Positions 1 through 14,876 of a stretch of 64,000 nucleotides of DNA are shown here, in pieces. Every line of letters begins with the position of its first letter. Position 1 is the first letter of the stretch. Source of the DNA: Nitrosopumilaceae archaeon (GTDB taxonomy: Archaea; Thermoproteota; Nitrososphaeria; Nitrososphaerales; Nitrosopumilaceae); the NCBI GenBank assembly GCA_965207375.1, contig CBDBMG010000001.1:96001-160000 (forward strand), written 5' to 3'. The notes under the pieces were generated by a model, which was not told the DNA's origin, did no database searches, and saw nothing but the letters and a program-made list of their open reading frames with translations. Position numbers and translations under genes: made by a program.

Positions 1-527
1 GACAGATCATAGTACTGTAACAGTGATATCCTATCACTAAAATACTCATGAGATGGTGAATTGAAAAATATCCATAAATTTATCAAAAAGTATAGCTAGC
101 TACATGACTTAGCTAATCATATCCATAGTTGGCATGCATGATTTATAATCCACTCAGTGCATGAGTCTCGAATTAAGACATCTAACATATTGCTTGCATT
201 TGATTAATCCAATGATCTTTATAGGTATAGTAGCTATATAGTTAGCTACATTAACATTGGTAAGCTATGATTAGAATACAAAAGACTCATAGAGACAAAC
301 CGTGTTGTAGCTATATACCTATACATACAGTATAGCTATATATACACATGCATGCTGTGGTAATACTGAAAATAACCAAAAACAGCATTTGAACATATAG
401 CTAGTTAGCTTTGCAAATATAGGTATCAACAATAATAGTTAGATGGCTATATAGCTATACATACATGTATACATGCACCACATGCATGCATGCATATAGC
501 TATACAAGAGTGGGCCAAAAGTTCATG

Positions 528-700
528 CACTGTAAAAATTATATGTAGCTATAGGCAGCAAGTGATGTTCACTAATATTTTAAGTGATGTTCACTGAAAA
601 TATTAGTGAATAATAGAACATCACTGAAAATATTAGTGACCATCACTGTGCTGCCACTATATAGCTATAGCTACTCACTACATAGTTTTTACATGCAGTG
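528..700. mobile_element. Small CACTG-ended MITE with internal direct and inverted subrepeats
   Basis: cactgtaaaaa ... tttttaca(tgc)agtg; internal agtgatgttcact / aacatcact and aaaatattagtga repeats. Confidence 0.5.
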
Positions 701-1569
701 CATGTTATAGCTATAATTGTCTCAGTGCATGCATGTCAATATAGCTATAGCTATATAATATAACGGCCCAGTTAGCAATTTACGTACATTCTATACATGC
801 ATGCATTCGTATTTGCATGAATGTACCGGTATACCATGTATACCATGTATACCATGCATAACGTAGTTATACGTCACAAAAGAAAATGGCTGGTGAAAGC
901 AGTTTTGAAACGTGGGTTAAAGAAAACGGTGGAAACGACCAATTCATTGCTATATTGGCATCATTTGGCTTCACATCAAAACTTGCATTAGGTAAGCAGT
1001 GTCTGAAGATATAGTTAGTTTATTAATCACGCAGCCCGGTCCGCTATTTTTACTACTTTCAGTCACAGTGAGTCGGGCCGCGGTTTGCCGGGCCAGTGTA
1101 TATTCGCCGAGTCGGGGGCGGCGACCCATGCACATGCATGTGTATCAGCGGTCTGGGCAGCCACTACTAATATAGCTCTGAGCTATAGCTAGCGACTACT
1201 TTCACTGAGTTCTGTCATCAAAACCGCCAAGATCAAACTGAACTATTCTGTGAACTTGCCACCGTGCACGTGCCGGGAGGTTCGATTAGCTATGGCCGTT
1301 TTTCCCGTCACGGGCCGGGTCCCAACGATGCGTATATACGTATAGCTACTGATTGAATACATTATATGTAAAGCCGCTTAGCTTGCAATTGTACATGTGT
1401 ATCATAGGCGGTTATAGTTAGCTATGTATTATCAGTGAGTTGCAACTTTCTCACGGGCCATATCAGCTATATACGTGTATTATGCCGGCATGCATGCATG
1501 GTATGCATGTAGCTATATAGGGGGTCTGTAGCAGACCAGTTAATATATAGTTCAGTTTGCATTTCACTC

Positions 1570-2140
1570 TTTAGTGGATGCATGCAAGTGCTGCACTAAG
1601 GAGTGCAGCACTTGCACTCTTGTGGCTTGACTTAGATCAGCTCATTCAGCTTCACCTTGTTTGTGTGATGTTCCATCAGTACCATACTGTAGCTCACAAG
1701 GGATCTCATTGAAGCCGACTATACATTTTGGTAACCACACATCTTATTATACTAGAACCCAGCCCCACTTTGCTAATCTTAATCGCTTGCTGCCACAAAT
1801 AATTGGAACGATTTACCATCACATGCATCTATAATAATATATATAAAGCAAATGACGTCTTTTTCTGAGTTTTCCGAGCCGCCAAACATGATTTGTTGAA
1901 CTCATAATTTTTTTGTTGGTTTTTGTAGTTGTGTGATTATAATGTTGTTGTCATGTTGTATTGTTATTGTGTATGTCTATTATATATGTATATATATATG
2001 TTGTATTGTTATTTTATATAGCATGTTTATTGTATTATATGGTTGTGTGTTGTATATTGTATGTTATATGCCTCCAGCAAGGAAGAACGGCAATGTCAAT
2101 TGCTGGGAGGTTAAAAATCATTAATCAATTAATCAATTTC
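1570..2140 (+). mobile_element. 3' end of a non-LTR retrotransposon in HECT intron 1
   Basis: Degenerate RT C-terminal 'WNDLP', T-rich UTR, stem ctccagcaa...ttgctgggag and (AATC)n tail. A related tail (gcaaggaagaacgg...atcaatcaattaatc) is at 52385-52450. Confidence 0.55.
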
Positions 2141-4472
2141 AACCAGAATCGCATGCTTGCATTATTTTGGGATGTAACTATGTAGCTAAATAGCTAGCTA
2201 GCTATATAGCAGGGGTTTGGCATTTTACTGACAAATAGCTATAGCTACTGGACGTTGTGTTCCTCTAGATCTGCTTGCATGATGTGTCTAACTATAGAAC
2301 TATAGTACATGCATGTATAGCTATTATGATATAGATAATAGGTATATATACGCAGTCACAGTAGCTATAGCTGTAGTTGTGTCTTTTCAATCCAGCAAAC
2401 CTTTGTATGGATTCTGAAGACTGCGAAAGACTCTTAGCACAAATGAATTGTGGACAAAAGTGCTTATTACGGGGGCTGATCAGTGCTTCTAAAGACCAAA
2501 ATCGAGATGTATACAAAGAATCAGTGCAAAAAACAAACAATTTAAAGGGAATAACAAAAGGGAGAGATCTCCGTAGTACTCTTGGGCAACTTTTCAACAA
2601 GCAGATGGGCAGAATGAATCATCAAGAAACTGATAAAGGTCTGAATGCAGGTCTAAGTAATGTTGATGTTGCAGGCCCAAGCAATATTGCAAGTCCAAGT
2701 CAGTCTCAGAAGTGCAAGATGAAGGGGAAAGGCAAGTATCCAGCTAAAGGTCCCATTAAAAGAAAAGTAAAAGAATATCGGTTAAGAGTGGTTGGTTTAA
2801 GGAAGATGTGTTCTAAGGCTCCAGTTGGTACTATAAGAGAATCGCTGATGAAGAGTGTCTGGGTACGCGAAAATGCACTAGCTGAAGAGGTAACAAGGAA
2901 GATATGTGAGGCTTTTAACTGGAATTATGACAGAAGCACTATACAATACATGTATGCCAATGGAAGGTACTTGCGTGCAGCTAATTTAGAAGATGTTGAA
3001 AATGCTGATTGCTGGGATTCAGAAGCAGTACGAGTTCTGATGGGTTCTGGCTGCCTGTATGTTGTTAGGAAAGTGCGGGAGGTTGAGCATGTGAAAGTGG
3101 ATGAAGGTGCCACTAGTGATGATGAGGATGATGTGCACCTTGTACCTTTAAAAGAAAGTGATATAAACATGGCAAATGATTTACCATCAAAGGTGGGATA
3201 TTATGTACGTAGCTATATAGCTATATAGCTATGTTATTTTATTATGTAGAGTAATCTGGAAACATTAAAGGAAATTTTTCATACGCTACCTCAGGATGAA
3301 ATAGAAAAGGCCTTACAACAGTATGGTTTTAGTGAAGCTGTGGATCATTTGTTGGGTTGTCAAGGAAAATCCACTCAACATGTGAACAAGATAATGAGGA
3401 CCATGAAACGCTTCAAGATACACAGTTACAGCAGAATTTGGCAGAGAACTCAAACTTGGACCTGATTGACTTTGAGGTAACTACATATAATCATGATTAA
3501 TATACCAGATAGCTAAGTAGCTATAGTTATTTTATCATGATCAGCTATACTACGTGTATATAATTATATGGTTTCAAAGATAGCTAACTTTATGTTGATA
3601 TATAATGTCTTTAGAGGAGTCCATTGCTTAATAACAGTGGTGGCACTGCCACCAACCCAATCATTGTTGATCATGGTGAGACTCCTAAAGAATCATTGTC
3701 ACTGCAGTCAATACTATATATGCATCAGAATGAAGTATTGGATCCATTAGCTGAGTATATCTTATCAGTTGATAGATCTACTCCTGAAAAGCTTTGGCAA
3801 AGTGCTGTTTGCTTTTATAAAAATGCAATCGTAAAGCCTGGAAAACTTTGTAAAGAACTGGTGATTCAGTTTGATGGAGAAGCTGGTGCTGACTCTGGAG
3901 CTCTACGGCGTGAATTTTTTGAAGATATAATCTATCAGGGAAATTTGCGCCTTTTTGAAGGTGAAAATGACAGACGAATAGTAAAGAAAGATTGGGGACT
4001 GGAAGTAATCTGTGAAATATTTGGAATGATGGTGGCCCATTCAATTATGCAGGAAGGCCCAGGCTTTCCTTGCTTGAGCCCCTGCATGTTTCAGTATCTT
4101 GCAACAGAAATGAGTGATGAATGTTTTCCAGTGAAAGAAGACATCCCTTTGAACATCGCAACACATGACCTGCTAACATTTATTGAAGAGGTAAGTAACT
4201 ATTGCCAGGGTATCAATCATTATTTCATCAGTATTTATAGAAAGTTTCCATGCAATTTGGAAAAATAGGGTTGATAATGTACAATACACTGTGTGCACAA
4301 TTTGTTAATAACAGCAACAAAATTAATAGCTAAGTCATACAGGGACCAAATATATAGTGCATGGTTATATTTCAGGCTACAAAGTAACTAGTACAGAGAG
4401 GGCCATAGTTACCAGTCAGGTTTCAGTTACGTACCTTAAGCTGAGTAATAATACTAGACAAAATACAATGTA

Positions 4473-4942
4473 TTGTGGGGGCTAGCCTGAGCAACGTCAC
4501 AACACGCATATTTTAATTGCGCATAAACACGTTTTCACAAAATACATGTACATGTCATGAATGGAACCTTCAAGCCTTGCAGTTGGCTTGTTTACGAATC
4601 ACAGGTGCTAGATACTACAAATTCCACACCACGCTAACAGGCGCTCCATGTTTCAACAACATAAGATAGTGCTAGGTAAAATTATTATTCATTAGCGATT
4701 GATAAACTTGCTTCTTAGTATAAGAACCTGTTTGTTCATGTTGTTTGTCACTACATGTTTGTTGAACAAAGCAGTGCACCAAACCCGCCTTAAACGCTGC
4801 AATCAACAACTGAAGGTACCCCGTAAATTAATATTACTCTTGTATATTTTTGTGTCATGAACGTACGGACAGAACAACAGAGAGACAGACCGACCGCACG
4901 AACTTCACGTTTATGTGGGGCTCGCTCAGGCTCACCCCAATT
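4473..4942. repeat. Non-autonomous interspersed repeat with inverted ends
   Basis: ttgtgggggctagcctgagc ... gtggggctcgctcaggctcaccccaat; internal acagacagaccgaccg microsatellite. Confidence 0.5.
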
Positions 4943-7594
4943 ATGATGCACTAATCTTAAGCTTAGTGACTAAAATTTGTTACATTCAATACTCTCTAAT
5001 AAAATAGATTAATGATTGGTTACTGCATTAGTAGAGTATCAATAAACAAGTGTTAAATTTAATGTTGGAATTCTTAAAATTTGCTATAATATCACCTGCC
5101 AGTTATGCCAGCATTTTAAGCATAATAGGTGGATAAAAGTATCCCTACTTCCTTTTAAATTAAATTATTCTAGTTTGTTTGTTTTTATACCATACTTGCA
5201 TAAGTATATAGTTTGCATAATCATATGCATATTATAAATCAATATGTCCTTGCTTTCCAGGCACCTAAAAACATTACAGGCACCTACTTAATTTTTTAAA
5301 TGTGCTTGTAAACGAGATCGTTAACATGGCAATAGTGAAATACATTCAAAATCTATAGCTATTCGTCTTAACTCAATTGGCTGATCCATAGATTAAGCTG
5401 TTACTAGCTGGTACAGCCTACTACAAGGTGAGAAATATAAACAATCAAACCACACAAGTTGTTGTCATGGAGTTCCTTATTAAATAACAGACAAATATGT
5501 AGGCTGTGAGGGGGCTAGGTAATAGAAGACTAGGGAGACATATAGGAAGACTATAGCCTGACTAGGTGCAGGCATACGTACTTATGTAGGATACCATGGG
5601 TGTGCATGGCTGACTATATTACTATAGCTATTATTATAGGCTAAATATATAGGCACAAGTAAATAAAGACTATATGCGGAAATCTATAGGTACACACACG
5701 CACGCATGCACACACGTACACGCACGCATACACACAGAGTAAGCTTGAGGCTAAGAAGGCCAATTAGACTAAGTACATATATAAGCATGGGAGACTATGT
5801 AGCTACGTAAAGTGTGCATCTAATAACAATGTGATGAGCACTCTGCAGTGTCATAAATACACAACACTTTTACGGTAATATAGCTAGGTAGGCTTAGATA
5901 GGCAAAGGGCTATAATTATTATGTAGACATAGAAACTAGGTAGTGACTGGATTTGCAAAAACCAAAATCTACTTAATGTTATAGCTACACTCAAATATGT
6001 ACTATCTAGACACAGTAACAATATAGTTATAAGAGGCCAGGTCTGCTTTTAGACGACCCTGTCAAGTCATGAGGAGTCACAACAGAGCCTGTGGGCATTA
6101 ATAAGGTGGCATTGGGCGTCAAACTACTCCCAAAGTCTACCTCTGCCCGTGCTATGGTCTGGGTCCACTGTGGCTGTTTCTGTCAGTTACTGAACAAGCT
6201 GCAGCTTGCATGGCTGCCTGAGTGTTCTGGTTCCTGAAACCCCACTTGTACGTGACACTCGTGATATTACAGAAAGTTTACAAGAACCACTCAAAAACCA
6301 GTGATTTCAACTAGCTGTCAACTTGCTAGCTATAAAACCAGTATTCTTCTGGTACAAATCTGCCATGGCTATACAATCAAGTTTCAGTGAACCGCAGTGT
6401 CTTGAATATTTCAAATTGGAATTTCTTGAATACAAATTGTGACAATACAGTCGGTTTTCTTAAATCATGCCATGCATAGCATTTATTTAACTATAGGGCA
6501 GGTACATCTGCTAGTCTGTTAATACTATATTAAAACAGTTAACACTAGCTACGTTATATAATTATGCTGTTTAAATTAATTAGCTAGCTATAGCTTACTG
6601 TTAATACAGCTCAATGATGCATCCAGTGAGGAAGACATTGACAAATTAACCATCAAATGCTTACATTCTGAACAACAGTGGATGGTGCATAACAAATGTC
6701 ATTACACCTGCTAACAAACTTCAGTTTCTACAGCACTTGATTCATGATGAAGTAATCATAAAACGTGAGCGTAATCTGAGAGCAGTTTGTCGTGGTCTCG
6801 ATTATTTACATCTTGGGAGATTAATAAAGATGCATCCCAATGTTACACGTGGGTTGTTTATTGCAGAAGAAAATGCTGAAATTACAGCAGATGGTTTCCT
6901 TGCACTGGCCACATTTGATGAACCAAAGAATGAGAACCAAGCAAAAGCACTGGATTATTTTAAAGAATTTATCAGTTGCATTGAAAGTAAGAGCTAGCTA
7001 GTTAACAATAGTTAGCTATACATTTATAAGCACAACATATAGTCGAAACTTGAAAGTAGCTATATAGTAGCTAGTCCATATAAACTATAGCTGTATGATC
7101 TCTTTTACAGGAGATAAAACACGGAATGTTTCTCTACCATCACTATTGCGTTACACCACGGGATTATCTAGCATTCCACCCCTTCAATCAAGTTCAATCA
7201 AGGTTACTTACCAGCTAAATGATGAGGATGCAATTTACCCTATGGCTCAAGTATGCTTTTCAAGGCTTACTTTACCGGTGGTGCACAAGAGCCAACAGTC
7301 ATTTAACGATGCATTTGTAAAGGCTTTGGAGTTTGGTGGTGGATATGGGAACATATAGTTAGCTAGGGAAAAGCTAAATTTCAACAAACAAGGACATAGC
7401 CATGATTATTATTGTAATTGATTTCACACATAGTTAGCTATATAGCTAGACTATCTATATTGTGTAGCTATAGCTATAGTCGTAGTTATGTGATATTTGC
7501 TTATGTATGAATACACAATTAAGGATTCTAATTAGCAAATTATTAGATGGCTAACTACGTAAGTACCTATTATGCAGTTTAAGTAACAAAGGAG

Positions 7595-10500
7595 TCACTG
7601 ATTGCAATGGCTATGTACGTATCTTCTAACTTGTAAGTAAGCGTCAATACCGTAGTCACCAGTTGCATCTGGAGAATCTATCAAGTGACCACCTACCAAA
7701 GTATTCAACTCGGCATATTGCTGTGAACTCAAAGGATTATTGGTATCTGGCACCATAATATTTGGCAAATCAAGCAACTCAGAATGTACGGAATACTCAG
7801 AAGGTATTGATAATGAATTTGTGTTTCCAAATAAAATGCCACATGTATACAATTGTATTGGCGTCTTGTTGTTTTCAGACGTTAGGGCATGATTATTCCA
7901 TCCAGTCATGAAAGTTTTTAAAGCATCGTTTATCTTTTGCATATAAACAAAATGAAGACAGAATAGATCCAATTCTGAAGCTGGATCAAGAATTCCATTA
8001 TCTTCCAAATGATAAAATATTTGATAAAACACTGAAAGTACACATCTGTATGTGTCTCTCCACAAACGTTCTACTCTTTGGTTATGGACAGATGAGCCAG
8101 TTATCATAGGATTCCTCTTGTGTCCATGAATCAGCATGTATTCAGCAACCTAAATATGCACAGTCATAAAAAGAACCAATTGCAAGTTAATTGTTCACAA
8201 AAGGCAATACAATAGACTAAGTGACAATTATAGTGATCAAAAACTTAAGCTAAATAGCTAGCTATATATATATAACTTAAAGCTAAATCTATAGTTAGAT
8301 AGACTAGGTAGCTATGTAGCTATGTAGCTAAATACATGCTATCTACCTTGATATTTTCACCCCCCTTATCACTTCTGACACGATCTGGAAGGCCATAATC
8401 TCTGACTGCACCCTCAAACAAATGAAACACTGTTTCACTCCTGTTGTTATTCGAACAACACAAATACACAATAAATCGAGAGAAACCATCTATCCCACTA
8501 TGCACTACCAGCCTCCACCTACACAGAAAAATTATTATAGTGACTTTTAAAAACCATGTTCTATGTAGCTACCTTATTAATTTGTGGTTCCCATCTATAT
8601 GCCATAGGGCATTTGGGTAAGGAACTGAGTACACCCTTCTTCTAATGGGAGATGCCCATCGTAAAGCTGAATTTATTGGATCTACTTCAGATAAACATTC
8701 ACGTAATCTAACAGTGGACACATGGATGCCCCTTGAATTGAGTATACCTCTCAACATACTCTGTCCAATATCTGGCATTCCTTGTTGAATATCTGACACT
8801 ATGGATTTTAAATCATCATCTGTGATATCACTAAAGCCAGTAAATTCTGTGCCAACTAATCCTAAGTTTGATCTTATGTTGTACATAGTTCTTCGGCTTA
8901 CACCGAACATAACAGCAATTGTAGACCATGTAAATCGTAATTCTCTAAGAAAAATTAGCTGCTCTTCCTTTACGATAAATCTAGGCCTACCACGTCTACC
9001 TGTGTACTCTCTCTCAGCTCTTAAGTTATCACCGGGAGCCGACAGTGTTACTCCAGCTTCAACATCATGCCAACGATCTTGAATGATTTTCAATGATTCT
9101 ATTAGATCCTCAATATTAGACAATATTTCATTAACAGAAGCTCCGTGCCTTGTTTCACTGTTTAAACCTTCCAATATATGAATAATTACATATTAGAGAT
9201 GTACCGATTCACTGATTCAGATTGGTATTTTAACTAATATATTTAGTCCCATGCTAATAGCGTAAACATCATCTGGTAACATTAGTTTACTTTCTTGATT
9301 CTGGGAGCCAAGATTTTGGCTGTCCAATCAGATACGAAGATTATATAATCCACTTAAAATATTAGAATATCGTTAAGTATGGAAGGTTTAGCGCCATCTA
9401 GAATACCCTATCCTAAAATAAAAATATTTTAATAGCTGTGTATATTATTTGGACAGGGAATAGATTTTCCGATACAGCACATTAACCGACACAATATTTT
9501 AAGTGGGTTGTGAAACTGTTCGAACTTAATTGGGTAGATTTGAACTTCCGGAATCAAGAAAATGGACTAATGTCACCAGACAGTGTTTTCACAATTAGTG
9601 TAGGCCCAGCTGGGGACGCCATAATTTATGTAAACACTGAGGATAGCACTTAAAATTTTCAGACAAATATCAACCTACACATAGCCATAGCCCGTGCAAA
9701 TATCCAAAAATTTGTACTTGTGGGATTATTACTTTTTGGTTCAATAATTACATGTTTGCATAGTGTAATATTAATACAAACCAGTGAATGTGTTGCTAGC
9801 TATAGCAGTATCAGGTAGGGCCCAAACGAACTTAACTGGATTCGAATGTTCGTTCGAACGAACGAACGAACATTCAAATGTGGATTGAGTAATTCGAATT
9901 ATACAAGAAGCATAATATGCAGAAAGGAGTACAGTAATTTCCATTGTTAGTGAATATGGCATCTGATCTGATATAATTGCTGGGCAGTGCTAGTCTATTT
10001 AGTCTATTGGTAATGACATTTTTGGGTGGTCAGGTGGTGGCCAGGAAGCCATACCTTATACAAACACTGAAGTTAACACTTGTACTGTAACAGCCTACCT
10101 ATACAGAAGTGTTATTACGTATTTATAACCTAACAGATGATGAAATCTTTAATTTGTGGGATACCACCAACCTTATTTTGGGGACATTTACAGAGTAATA
10201 GTGACTTATTGATTATATCGGATTGGTTGTATTTATCAGTTTTAACATTTTGTTTCTATTGACTATCGGAATATCGGCAAAAAGTCATATTGGTGCAACT
10301 CTACTAGGAATGTAGCTAAATGATATTTCTTCATAAAAAATAATCACATGATTTATTGCTTTGATTGAAGCTGATGTCTATTTAGTAAAGTTTAACTGTA
10401 ATCTATATACACTTATATGTATGTCATGTAAATTCGAAAGATTCGTGAACTTTCACTAATGAATGTTCGAACTCAGGTAATCCAAGTTCGTTTGGGCCCT

Positions 10501-11842
10501 AGTATCAGGTAACCATTTTACGATTAGTATTGATAGAGTTTTTAGTAGCTAAATTGGTTCGATAGGTTCATATTTACCGGATTGGTACATCTCTATTATA
10601 CATACAGTTTCTAGCTATATTCTTAGGCCATTCCAAATAAGTGGGTAGTTCCCATCCTTTGCCTGCATCATGTCTGAGTATCTGCATTGAATGGTCAATA
10701 TTGTCAAATTATGCAAAAATGTGCTGTGCTGCTAGCCTAGGGACACACTGATTATGCCAGCACAAGTGCTGGTAGCTTAAAGCATCAAGCATAATGCATA
10801 AGAGGAAGTGTTTGGCTAGGTATTTAAAAACAGGGAAAATTTATATCAAAAGATTGATATACTCTAATAGAGCAGTCATCATAATTAATGCACCTATCAA
10901 TGTCAAGCCCCACTCCCCCCACCCGGGCATAGGTGGGGATTTGTAAAACCTGTAACTAAAAAGACATACCCCAGGGGCAATATTTTTTGCAATGCCCCTC
11001 TCTAGACGCACCCAATATCCTGGGGCAATGTGGGAGTTCATTCTGTGTAAACATATATAGAACTTTCATGATCGATTGCTGGCCTGTTGCGTTTACCTAA
11101 ACAAACCAACACTTGCTTTTCGTTCGACTCTGCAATTTGTAAATTATTTTATGAAAATATTTTTAAATTTTTACAAATAACTACAATTACAAAATCCCCA
11201 ATAGTGGGGAGTGTAATTCTGGCAAAAGATGCACAAATCCCCATGTACGCCAGGGTGGGGGGGGAGTAGGGCTTCACATTGATAGGTGCATAACATTGCA
11301 AGTATAAAATACATTAATGAATAAATGACAATAAGCCTCCCTCCTTCATCAAAGTTTCGGAAACTACACATTGGCCTTTCATGATTGATGAAGTAATATG
11401 CAAGCTAAGGTACCGGCATAGCTAGTTATATGTAATTTAACATATCTAGTAGCTATGCACTATTTACATCATCAGCAGCTACCTTAAACTTATACGTAGG
11501 TATGTAGCCATTAGCAGAGAGCTACTAAGGCTTTTGAGTGTCACCCTAAACGAAAATGTATCGGCTATAGTTACTACACGTAAAATGTGTTTAAAGGTGA
11601 GCATTAAATAAGGTGAATAATTAAACACGTCTTTACAGATTGTAAGATCCAAAGACAGTAATGTTATAGTACATACATGATTCTTGTAAAGCATCAATGA
11701 TTGAACGCAATACACTAAGATAACATTCCAACTTCACTAATGCTGTCTCCGCCACGGCTACAGAAGCATTTTCTTCTTTTGAACTTAATAACTGAAGAAA
11801 AGAAGCTAAATCAGTGAAAAATTCTTCCCACAAATCCGCCAT
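7595..11842 (-). CDS. Spliced DDE integrase/transposase of IS3/IS481 (rve integrase-core) type, ~495 aa, apparently intact
   Basis: Exons 11842-11677, 9167-8573, 8518-8347 and 8149-7595 sum to 1488 nt in frame. Motifs: GRPRF, HTH-like [23 protein letters not shown] (D), [10 protein letters not shown] (D), [11 protein letters not shown] (E), WNNH. The acceptor at 9167 is weak. Confidence 0.88.
9816..10501. mobile_element. hAT-type MITE in integrase intron 1
   Basis: TIR tagggcccaaacgaactt / aagttcgtttgggcccta; perfect 8-bp TSD gtatcagg. Confidence 0.9.
10889..11290. mobile_element. PIF/Harbinger-type MITE in integrase intron 1
   Basis: TIR tgcacctatcaatgt(c/g)aagccc; TAA on both sides. Confidence 0.8.
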
Positions 11843-11996
11843 TTGTATCGGTGTAGTCGCTTGTAGACAATACTCATTACTGGATATCGCGGAAAATCGA
11901 TACCGTAACCGTATCGATATCACATAGTCTAGTTCTTAATAATGATACCAACTTTCGATCGAAATCGATGCGTCTTATAGTTAATTTTTGTCGCCA

Positions 11997-12120
11997 TAAA
12001 ATTCGATCGAAAATTTCAATCAGTGTGAAAATTCGATCGATAATTTGGATCGATGTGAAAATTTGATCGATAATTTCAATCGATGTCAAATTTCAATCAA
12101 AAATTACTGATCGATGTGTT
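11997..12120. repeat. About four degenerate ~30-bp tandem repeats rich in palindromic ATCGAT (subterminal array)
   Basis: aaaattcgatcgaaaatttcaatcagtgtg / aaaattcgatcgataatttggatcgatgtg / aaaatttgatcgataatttcaatcgatgtc / aaatttcaatcaaaaattactgatcgatgtg. Confidence 0.85.
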
Positions 12121-12171
12121 TAACTTCGATGATGTTTTACAGATGAATTTTTGCCCAGAAAACGCGCCATA

Positions 12172-12246
12172 TGTTTTAGAAACTTACATAATCACTGAGG
12201 GCATAGCCCGAGGTGATTATGTAACATTCCAAAGGTTTCTAGAACA
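12172..12246. repeat. Hairpin repeat with gagggcatagcccgag core
   Basis: tgttttagaaac-ttacataatcac-[loop]-gtgattatgtaa...gtttctagaaca; related hairpins near 28360-28415 and 46238-46337. Confidence 0.65.
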
Positions 12247-14589
12247 ATGTAGAACCGATGGATTTGAACAATAACTAATTTAGACTATGGTTTGCTAGCG
12301 TCTATTGCGCATGACATTGTTCCCCAAGACAATTCCAAAGGTATCTAAAACAGCGTAGAAGCGATCGATTCAAACGATAACCAAGTTAGCGAATGCCTAG
12401 CCACCATGTATATCATATAAAATTGCATTGCTATCATTATACCTCGATTTATTTTCAGCAATAGGCTAGGCCATATGTAGGATAAGTTAATTGCCATAGA
12501 AATGAATTTAACCAATCGAAAACTGCGTGCATCACAGCTGAGTAGTTAAGCGGTTTAATAACCCTGCTTGAGTATCTGTCGCATTTTAAAAGCCTAATTA
12601 CAGCAAAAATATCAAAGCATACTACACATACCATAGTCTAATATATATTTTTAGCAGATAAATTTTCGAGGATTAACTAACACAACCTTTTCATGGATAA
12701 AACTTGCTGTAAGGTAGCTAATTGCCATAAGGATACACACTATCCAGTTAATGGCGCCCTGCACTAAAAGTGTCAGACCGTCTTGGGTTCGGGCCGTCCA
12801 TGCCTTTCAAGTTCTGGTATAGCTCTTCAATATTCATTTTACCTTTCATTTTTACTCCAGTTCTGTAAGTATTCCTTCACTCGATCGCTCTCTATAAGTT
12901 CGGATACTTTGTGTATGGGCATCGGATATCTGGTACACAAAAATGGCAAACTTCCTCAGGAGGCCATGCTATATAGCTAGCTGCAATGGTACGTAGTAGC
13001 TATGCTCAGCTGTAAATTTAGCTCTGCTTTTTGCTGAAAGCTTGGAATACGTTCCACTAGCACTCTTGTCTAGTGCGCTCCGTGTCATCTGGCTCCACCA
13101 CAACGGCAGGCCCACCTGATGGCTAGGTAAATTATAATTTTCGTGGTTTAAATTTCGAGGATAGAGCAAAATCTGTGAAAACCTCAAAAATTTCCCCCAC
13201 GCAAAATTAACCCGCTATACAGTATTCTTTCAAGAGATAACAAGGTATGTATAAGTAGTCATTTAATAATGAAAGCATACTACATATCAATCAATAGAAT
13301 ATTGATAACCCTCTTTAGCTGGTAATAATTAACATATTTAAAAGTTTATACATATCAAAATTTCCTTTAAGCACATAGCTAGCTACTACGTAGGTTGGAG
13401 ATATGAGTATCAAGTACTGCAACAAGCTCTATAGGGATCCAACGAAAAATTGTGTAAACACTCTAATAGAACGTACGCCAAAAACCATCTTTAAAACTTC
13501 CTATGCTGTTGAAAAAACTGCCCAGATCCTCTTTCAATACTACTAAGACTATTACCGAAGTATAAAAAGCCTAGCTATATGGTATCTATATTTTTCATGT
13601 TTTTGAAAATATCCCAATTTCTCCATCTTCTTCTTCTTCTTTCGTGCATCTACAGTCCACACAAAGTCAAAATCAGAAATAAAAACTGCTGGCGTATCTT
13701 TAAAATGCCCCTACTCAGGTCTGTGATATTTTAAAAAGTTCGTTTTCTAAAGGGATTGGAAGATATGAGCCAAAACTTCCTCCATAAAGATCGAGAAGCC
13801 ATACGAACGCCCGTGGTGCATGTGCCAAAACGACCTCAACATTATGTGACCCATCTTATTGACGCCATACTGCCTGTTATAAGTGATTTTATAACTGAGC
13901 AACGTATTTCAGCTATTGATTTCAACCCTTTATTTTCATCGCTAGAAAAATAACTAAGTCCTTTATTTTCCACGTCATATATAACTGTTGAAGGTGGAGA
14001 ATAACACAGTGGATTTATCCATTCTAAGGTAAGTGCTATTGTGTGTTGTGTTAATTGTTGTATTTAACCACCGCGCGTGCTTTTGTCCTGGAAGTCGGTA
14101 TGTGTGCGCACGTCTGTGTGTGTCCGCCCCTCGGGCTATTAAAGTCATTGACGCCTGAATAACCAATTTAACAAGTCCTACTGCTTTTCAGTTTCTTATA
14201 AGGCACTGGCTATCGATACTATTGATGGGAGGGGCCTTAGTAACGAACCGCGTCGTGAGTTACTGCCAAAGAGGAGCAAGGTTACGCGGTATTTGCTGTT
14301 CATTACGCGGTAAAAGCCGTTTAACCAGTTGTACATTACTAACAAGACGGAGCGCTTCAGTTTTAAAAGTAGGCGTGCTGTGCGGGTTGCGAAGCTTACA
14401 AAACAAGACTGGCCTATAGTGTTACACTAATGCGTGTAAAGAGGCCGCTAGGGAGGCTTATGAGAGCAACCCTGAAAAGAAAAAGGAGGCTGTCAGAAAG
14501 ATTTATTACGTGAATAGTAAAAGATAATTGTTCATACATTTCATATGCAGGTGTCACTGTCCAGCAATGGACATGAAAAAACTAAAGAA

Positions 14590-14876
14590 ACTAGTAAATA
14601 TAAAAAATTGTTAATTTCAAAAAGGAGAATAGGGATCCTGAAAAAACTACCTAAACAAGGTGAAGATAGTGAGAGTTTGTGATTTTATTATATTTGAGTT
14701 CCCTATTTTGACTGTTGAAATGATATATGTAGTTGACCATACTCTCAGCTACTGTCAAAATAGGGATCTCAAATATAATAAAATCACAAACTCTCACTAT
14801 CTTCACCTTGTTTAGGTAGTTTTTTCAGGATCCCTATTCTCCTTTTTGAAATTAACAATTTTTTATATTTACTAGT
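14590..14876. repeat. Near-perfect fold-back (123-bp arms, 41-bp spacer) ending a TAGGGAT-family repeat
   Basis: Arms 14590-14712 and 14754-14876, one mismatch seen. Confidence 0.92.

Follow-up and report, generated by a model that had tools for sequence, protein, structure and literature searches.

A transposon of probable IS3EU/GingerRoot kind that encloses an integrase gene and a convergent gene for a predicted HECT ubiquitin ligase

In a stretch of 64,000 nucleotides (nt) of contig CBDBMG010000001.1 (positions 96,001 to 160,000; assembly GCA_965207375.1, Nitrosopumilaceae archaeon), hereafter the window, a gene for an integrase of the DDE type and a gene with a HECT ubiquitin ligase domain stand tail to tail within one mobile element. 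A reading of the sequence alone had proposed that the two genes move together as an IS3EU-like element, and this is borne out by termini and a target duplication that the genes share, by an empty insertion site, by the recurrence of the pair in relatives, by four families in which it is bounded in the same way, and by the agreement between the trees of the two proteins. The element is very probably an autonomous-type cut-and-paste transposon of the IS3EU/GingerRoot kind, with a coding content made up of the integrase and a HECT ligase of presumed role. Comparison with its relatives indicates that the ligase gene is integral to the transposon lineage and has long been kept there, being neither a neighbour nor a recent capture.

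The element spans 18,715 bp of the window's own genome, G000 (G000:C2:89457-108171; window coordinates -6543 to 12171), and both genes lie within it (Table 1). Its terminal inverted repeats are 154 nt long, with 148 of the 154 bases complementary (96%); both arms open with TATGGCGCG, and the ends have the form TATGG...CCATA. Tandem 30-mers are found in both arms, and four of them, at 11998-12118, overlap the right terminal inverted repeat, so that the repeat-rich candidate terminus noticed in the sequence-only reading coincides with the true right end at 12171. The interval proposed there, 886-12171, was thus exact on the right, but it takes in only the coding part and that right end, and stops short of the left end, which is found 6.5 kb beyond the window border. 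For this reason a search for inverted repeats confined to the window turned up no termini. Genomic comparisons, here and below, refer to 4.3 Mb of the window's own genome (of whose contigs C2, C3 and C4 are named), in which the 154-nt repeat has no copy beyond the two arms.

The boundaries are confirmed by a paralogous empty site. The insertion target was a palindromic repeat resembling a miniature inverted-repeat transposable element (MITE), the two halves of which now form the flanks, each bordered by the 6-bp duplication TGTTTT; at C4:308310-308420, the joined flanks with a single TGTTTT align unbroken. The MITE-like repeat is made up here of window 12172-12277 and G000:C2:89423-89456, and its copies lie at C4:308310-308420, C4:63421-63497 and C4:306130-306186. 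Apart from the two genes, the length of the element consists of later debris. Between the left arm and the start of the HECT gene, 7.3 kb are taken up by reverse-transcriptase fragments resembling those of long interspersed nuclear elements (LINEs) and by low-copy sequence. Because the arms have diverged by 4% and other insertions are nested in the element, the copy is judged to be old, and it is probably immobile. Its only kin in the own-genome sequence is a 1.2-kb integrase fragment, 91% identical, at C3:521164-522335. This fragment includes the introns and ends 84 bp past the stop codon; 640 bp beyond its 5' side lies a HECT C-lobe-like fragment of another lineage (C3:522974-523102), which suggests that related elements were inserted side by side.

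The integrase gene comprises four exons on the minus strand, open as in the sequence-only reading, with GT-AG borders and a frame of 495 amino acids (aa). The protein matches the Pfam families rva_4 (PF24764; exons 3 and 4) and rve (PF00665), and among 20 aligned relatives the D, D and E columns of the catalytic triad are invariant or at least 90% conserved. Exon 2 shows in addition a weak match to HTH_23 (E 5e-4), under the family cut-off; an HHCC zinc-binding N-terminal domain, which IS3EU/GingerRoot elements are expected to lack, was not noticed, although no search aimed at it was made. The integrase is 65% identical over 419 aa to P0002, a protein of the sponge Dysidea avara annotated as uncharacterized. 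Its named relatives, which come from sponges, fishes and a tunicate, are likewise labelled 'uncharacterized' or 'integrase catalytic domain' proteins. Contigs of four runs were placed on the stretch (X1, X4, X9 and X10, with X1 and X4 coming from two studies). In one X9 contig, integrase exons 2, 3 and 4 follow each other directly, cut at the predicted borders and with both introns gone, which fits a spliced transcript; since the type of library used in X9 is not on record, however, such a contig might in principle also represent a processed DNA copy. Intron 1 carries a nested insertion, and some X1 and X9 contigs lack it, showing instead a joint 9806>10501 at which 11 bases can be assigned to either side, a pattern that suits an insertion-free allele or a long target duplication.

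The HECT gene lies on the plus strand and converges with the integrase gene, and both the tail-to-tail layout and the 236-bp distance between the stops are as first described. Its six predicted exons stand, together with the catalytic Cys of the AQVCF motif and a match of exon 6 to Pfam HECT (PF00632) of 28 bits against a cut-off of 23.9 bits, but in the window assembly the frame is broken twice, in exons 3 and 5. Exon 4 aligns to positions 23-163 of a HECT profile built in this analysis. The sole match to exon 4 in a word-based protein search is P0001, a 362-aa homologue that itself carries Pfam HECT and resembles the HECT domains of E6AP (1c4z; E 4e-8) and AREL1 (E 8e-7); with P0001 as query, this type of search yielded no match. 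In an alignment of 14 rows, the column of the AQVCF Cys is at least 90% conserved, and from this residue and the domain the protein is predicted to act as a ubiquitin ligase. At both frame breaks, X1 and X4 contigs differ from the window at full depth, with one extra A behind 3365 and eight extra bases behind 6647, and the frames are thereby back in register; P0001 reads straight through the region of the exon-5 break. Because these contigs carry further small indels and base changes relative to the window, we read them as another allele or individual, while an assembly error at the A-run behind 3365 is also conceivable. No X9 or X10 contigs are listed on the HECT exons, and no RNA source is listed for the stretch as a whole; both results are uninformative as to expression.

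Ahead of the HECT domain, the architecture is only partly as the sequence-only reading had it. The CUE-like domain of exon 3 scores 13.8 bits, under the cut-off of 21.1 bits, in the window, but the corresponding position of L009, the closest relative, reaches 25.8 bits (E 8e-6); the frames of four other relatives give no Pfam match to CUE. The proposed SAM-like domain found no support, with no Pfam family matching exon 1 or exon 2 at E≤0.1 when the exons, whose junction such a domain would straddle, were searched singly; a model of the N-terminal part shows four helices at low to middling confidence. Exon 2 encodes, moreover, a beta-grasp domain of about 100 aa, modelled by AlphaFold2 at residues about 120-200 with a predicted local distance difference test (pLDDT) score of 85-90. 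In Foldseek, this domain comes closest to RA/RBD, ubiquitin and SUMO folds (E about 0.01), with no match at E≤0.001. Exons homologous to exon 2 also stand ahead of the HECT domain in L009, in L023-type elements, and in L033, L085 and L003. Ligases of the G2E3 type have PHD/RING-like zinc fingers ahead of their HECT domain, and a G2E3-like identity, which we had expected, was considered and dropped: Pfam finds no zinc-finger family on any exon of the gene, and the cluster names of 20 relatives never include G2E3.

The association of the two genes is not confined to the window but extends to many related elements in other sequence of animal origin. An alignment of the integrase was used to scan metagenome contigs, which gave 573 confirmed matches, and the best 80 of these were analysed (loci numbered with L). 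HECT-like frames were flagged by three rounds of blastp seeded with the window, P0001 and the own-genome loci, and loci with at least 1500 nt of sequence downstream of the integrase match were taken as informative. An opposite-strand HECT-like frame, usually beginning 100-600 nt past the integrase match, is present in 38 of the 48 informative loci, the tail-to-tail adjacency expected of a pair that moves as one, and in 23 of the 28 loci with at least 3000 nt downstream, as against 4 of the 32 loci with less than 1500 nt, all of these counts being inflated by near-identical copies. The HECT-bearing loci lie on contigs of seven accession series and represent about 25 lineages, with about eight informative lineages negative (the lineages being our own grouping on the integrase tree), and they occur in nearly all major branches of that tree. 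Among seven full-length downstream frames, six exceed the Pfam HECT cut-off and the seventh scores 18.1 bits.

Elsewhere, seven insertions in four families could be bounded. In one family, both genes of L023, L024, L028 and L082 lie between exact TATGGCAAGCG termini bordered by identical 6-bp flanks, whereas the flanks of a further copy, L071, are unequal. Both genes are enclosed likewise, by TATGG termini with identical 6-bp flanks, in L068, L085 and L033 (L035 being the same insertion as the last), which belong to three more families. The L033 and L085 elements are only 7.2-7.4 kb long and therefore contain little besides the two genes, and within the L023 family copies match one another at 94-99% over about 9 kb, with both frames open. 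A GC-rich tandem repeat whose unit includes ...GTGTCTCGCTCGCTACGCTCGCTCGCCAATAA... surrounds L023, L024 and L082, and two insertions of the L023 family share the 6-bp duplication CGCTCG, which may be a preferred target.

In the window's own genome, all five Pfam HECT C-lobe matches are located less than 26 kb from an rva_4 match. The convergent layout is seen only in the window and at L001/L006 (C4:133539-160000 and C4:932212-892541), which are the two arms of one inverted duplication of more than 26 kb, 98% alike and reaching to 127 bases from the contig end, and hence not independent copies; their integrase is intron-less and 415 aa long, open in L001 and with one stop in L006. That an ordinary host HECT gene has come by chance to neighbour a transposon with an integrase alone, or a domesticated integrase, would agree with the lack of a second close copy of the window HECT gene in the 4.3 Mb and with the partial integrase copy on C3, which breaks off 153 bp before the HECT stop. 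Such a chance neighbourhood is scarcely credible, given that a single inverted-repeat pair and a single target duplication enclose both genes, and that the pair recurs as described and lies within the termini of four other families. Neither a syntenic, single-copy HECT gene without an integrase neighbour nor terminal inverted repeats that exclude the HECT gene appeared in the material, although either could have been expected if the genes were unconnected.

The two proteins also largely diverged together, as a common history of the pair would have it. Trees were built from profile-stitched rows for the 16 elements with enough of both proteins, and labels were shuffled 10,000 times. The integrase and HECT trees share 6 of 13 splits, whereas shuffled labels share 0.23 on average and 4 at most; the patristic distances correlate with a Mantel r of 0.82, which was reached by none of the shuffles, and the window element pairs with L009 in both trees. 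Across families, the identity of the HECT proteins is about 20-30%, and that of the integrases about 40-45%.

The ligase family is large, with 7840 representatives at E≤0.001 and 789 clusters at E≤1e-30. Bivalves, sturgeons, a bichir and a firefly supply the named members, which appear in public records as E3A-like, TOM1-like, Itchy homolog, HECT domain-containing or uncharacterized proteins; one cluster at 90% identity consists of 15 sturgeon proteins under several locus names. In P0171, a predicted protein of 975 aa from the firefly Photinus pyralis, a relative of the HECT family is joined to a MULE transposase domain and a FLYWCH finger; the protein represents either a second transposon superfamily with the ligase or a merged gene model.

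This firefly protein, together with the informative loci that lack the HECT frame, could be taken to mean that the HECT gene is a passenger, i.e. a host gene captured once or several times without a role in transposition. DNA transposons do capture host genes. TET/JBP genes were passively exchanged among fungal IS3EU elements and other superfamilies, according to the accessible part of the account (PMC12730594). We nevertheless consider a passenger improbable. Position, orientation and the catalytic Cys are kept down to about 40% integrase identity, and the trees largely agree; moreover, the compact elements consist of just the two genes, and the young copies keep both frames open.

Several observations weigh against a two-gene element with an integral ligase. 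Ten of the 48 informative loci have no HECT frame, and two integrase clades have none at all; the negatives include the clade L030/L075, the family of L078, L079 and L081, in which unrelated insertions lie downstream, and single loci beside HECT-bearing relatives. L071 and L018, the latter again with the TATGG start, possess both termini yet have unequal flanks, and in the L013-L020 family the target duplication is unconfirmed, the flanks of L018 being different and the other members showing one end only. In the convergent HECT-like C-lobe of L001/L006, Tyr or Phe replaces the catalytic Cys. At C4:294-316 kb and C4:494-521 kb, the integrase and the nearest HECT match are 12-25 kb apart and on the same strand, so that these loci are either decayed pairs or separate elements. 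The two trees conflict on L013, L036, L056 and L069, and dN/dS (the ratio of nonsynonymous to synonymous substitution rates) among copies of one family is near 1, a value uninformative on selection because the divergence is below 1%.

One of the negative clades is instructive as to what the second position can hold. In L030 (115-4475), the convergent slot of the HECT gene is occupied by a gene for an AAA ATPase (Pfam AAA, E 6e-16, and AAA_lid_6). The L030 slot also holds a 254-aa frame of no known family; L075, L046 and L087 are relatives within this sister clade.

Among known systems, cellular HECT E3 ligases such as E6AP/UBE3A, AREL1 and Rsp5 share with the ligase the HECT domain and the Cys in its C-lobe. 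They differ in that the ligase described here is encoded by a mobile element, is multi-copy in some genomes, and has another N-terminal architecture; its family is also very divergent in sequence, with Pfam scores of just 18-36 bits. Some DNA transposons carry Ulp1-like and OTU-like proteases, and some viruses encode E3 ligases. The transposon proteases resemble the present case in that a mobile element brings its own enzyme of the ubiquitin system, but they remove the modifier, whereas here it would be added.

The probable assignment of the element to the IS3EU/GingerRoot kind is made on published descriptions of four features: its DDE transposase is of the integrase type, its termini follow TA..TA in the form TATGG..CCATA, its target duplication measures 6 bp, and its inverted repeats are close to 150 nt long. 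According to the parts of the literature accessible to us, IS3EU elements have TA..TA termini and mostly 6-bp duplications, and GingerRoot groups with IS3EU (PMC10045372), having itself a 6-bp duplication and inverted repeats of 100-150 bp (PMC6839031). The elements described here differ from both in that a ligase is the regular second gene, whereas the accessible parts of the published accounts contain no HECT or ubiquitin gene. The closest parallel comes from fungal IS3EU elements, which, in the part of the report available, end in TAYGG..CCRTA, make 6-bp duplications and carry an alpha-kinase gene oriented opposite to the transposase (PMC12730594). They thus share the duplication, the termini and a second enzyme on the opposite strand with the elements studied here, but their accessory genes encode a protein kinase plus a DNA demethylation enzyme (TET/JBP), and their hosts are fungi.

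A search of the literature, to which Repbase Reports and supplements did not belong, found no published description of HECT in IS3EU. The accessible portions of accounts of IS481EU, GingerRoot, Hydractinia and fungal TET/JBP elements do not mention a HECT or ubiquitin gene. Likewise, as far as the retrieved text goes, publications that combine HECT or G2E3 with transposon or integrase contain nothing on such a pairing, and the one co-mention concerns, to judge by title and abstract, bacterial Death and TRADD-N domains.

Table 1. Coordinates of the element, its two genes and its insertion site (window positions unless a contig is named; gene structures are predicted)
Feature	Position	Strand	Remarks
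Left terminal inverted repeat	C2:89457-89610 = L008 5457-5610		6.5 kb outside the window
Left target duplication TGTTTT	C2:89451-89456		6 bp
Element interior upstream of HECT start	1-885		element extends leftward out of the window
HECT gene exon 1	886-991	+	predicted; ATG, donor GT at 992; in phase with exon 2; no Pfam match
HECT gene exon 2	2396-3192	+	helical N-terminal part, disordered linker, beta-grasp (ubiquitin-like) domain of ~100 aa
HECT gene exon 3	3250-3476	+	CUE-like; frame break at A-run behind 3365
HECT gene exon 4	3615-4190	+	start of HECT N-lobe; 66% identity to P0001
HECT gene exon 5	6610-6986	+	remaining N-lobe; frame break near 6647
HECT gene exon 6	7111-7358	+	C-lobe, predicted catalytic Cys (AQVCF), stop; Pfam HECT positions 232-305 of 306
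Spacer between convergent stops	7359-7594		236 bp
Integrase exon 4	8149-7595	-	E of DDE (QRVERLW), C-terminal region, stop; rva_4 E 1.2e-37
Integrase exon 3	8518-8347	-	second D (RSDKGGEN); rva_4 E 1e-24, rve E 6.6e-8; X9 contig piece 8345-8516
Integrase exon 2	9167-8573	-	helix-turn-helix-like N-terminal part, first D (WHIDG); start of rva_4
Nested insertion, ~0.7 kb	9807-10500		in intron 1 of the integrase gene, with inverted GGGCCCAAACGAAC ends; C4 has further related copies
Integrase exon 1	11842-11677	-	ATG at 11842; in phase with exon 2; X10 contig piece starts at 11675
Right terminal inverted repeat	12018-12171		ends ...GCGCCATA; complementary to C2:89457-89610
Right target duplication TGTTTT	12172-12177		6 bp
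Rest of MITE-like target	12178-12277		beyond the right target duplication

Other repeats are abundant in the window. The motif TAGCTATAGCTA and its variants are very dense in introns and intergenic DNA, where many short inverted repeats occur by chance. Beyond the element, a repeat of ~330 bp at 14098-14430 has more than 60 copies in the own-genome sequence; it sits in a 1.4-kb repeat (13431-14876) that has its own 126-nt inverted repeat (14590-14715 / 14751-14876) and is present in several copies, 94-97% alike.

By analogy with its family, the integrase would bind the repeated 30-mers of the 154-nt terminal inverted repeats, cut at the TATGG...CCATA ends and insert the element with a 6-bp stagger. 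The element-made ligase would then ubiquitinate a protein at the site of transposition, the favoured substrate being the integrase/strand-transfer complex or a protein bound to it; in this way a very stable complex might be removed, after which host repair would close the gaps. The sequence-only reading had put forward, as roles that the ligase may have, the degradation of host silencing proteins, the modification of target chromatin and the control of transposase turnover. We favour such an action of the ligase on the transposition complex or on a host factor bound there, with a counter-silencing role close behind, because the AAA ATPase and the alpha-kinase that occupy the same slot also act on proteins, and because strand-transfer complexes of DDE enzymes need active removal. 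The phage Mu transpososome, for example, is taken apart by the ClpX unfoldase. The analogy lies in a DDE complex that needs active disassembly, and both the AAA ATPase of L030 and the HECT ligase could feed protein removal; it is limited in that the unfoldase of phage Mu is a host protein, whereas an action of the ligase on the integrase is here put forward as a proposal.

Going one step further, we tentatively suggest that the HECT ligase may be an obligatory cofactor of transposition, and that IS3EU has a modular slot for one convergent enzyme that modifies or removes proteins. The slot would be held by the HECT ligase in most animal lineages, by the AAA ATPase in the sister clade and by the alpha-kinase in fungi, and at the insertion site its occupant would act on the integrase complex or on a host factor, either clearing it away or marking it. 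The same comparative evidence of gene retention, namely recurrence, the conserved Cys and the trees, would equally suit a ligase that is integral to the element but aimed at the host, marking for degradation a silencing or restriction factor such as a chromatin repressor, a small-RNA protein or a DNA-damage sensor. Some viral ligases do mark host factors in this manner. The N-terminal parts of the transposon ligases differ strongly between families, and the ligase is far less conserved than the integrase (20-30% against 40-45% identity), as would be expected of a protein tracking changing targets; some relatives even have other N-terminal pieces, e.g. weak V-set matches under the cut-off. However, the quicker change of the ligase may reflect weaker constraint, and the AAA ATPase and the alpha-kinase found in the same slot do not speak specifically for counter-silencing. 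On balance, a ligase aimed at host defences seems somewhat less likely to us, and we retain as our preferred, if provisional, reading that the enzyme acts at the transposition complex.

Through this element and its relatives, a predicted ubiquitin ligase joins the short list of enzymes carried by DNA transposons. They also offer a testable system, in which there are two genes, the ends are defined, and young copies, 94-99% alike, keep both frames open; it has a bearing on the resolution of stable integrase complexes or on the evasion of host control. For genome annotation, the finding means that relatives of the transposon ligase are named as host genes in public records, and that the expanded E3 ligase families of some reports may partly be transposon copies. 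As leads only, we point to the 20 'G2E3' copies described for a sea cucumber (PMC9700323) and to the G2E3-like unclassified repeats of Cottus (PMC5638112), both taken from the accessible parts of these reports. If the ligase does prove to be an obligatory cofactor, these elements would be the first lineage of DNA transposons to depend on an E3 ubiquitin ligase of their own.

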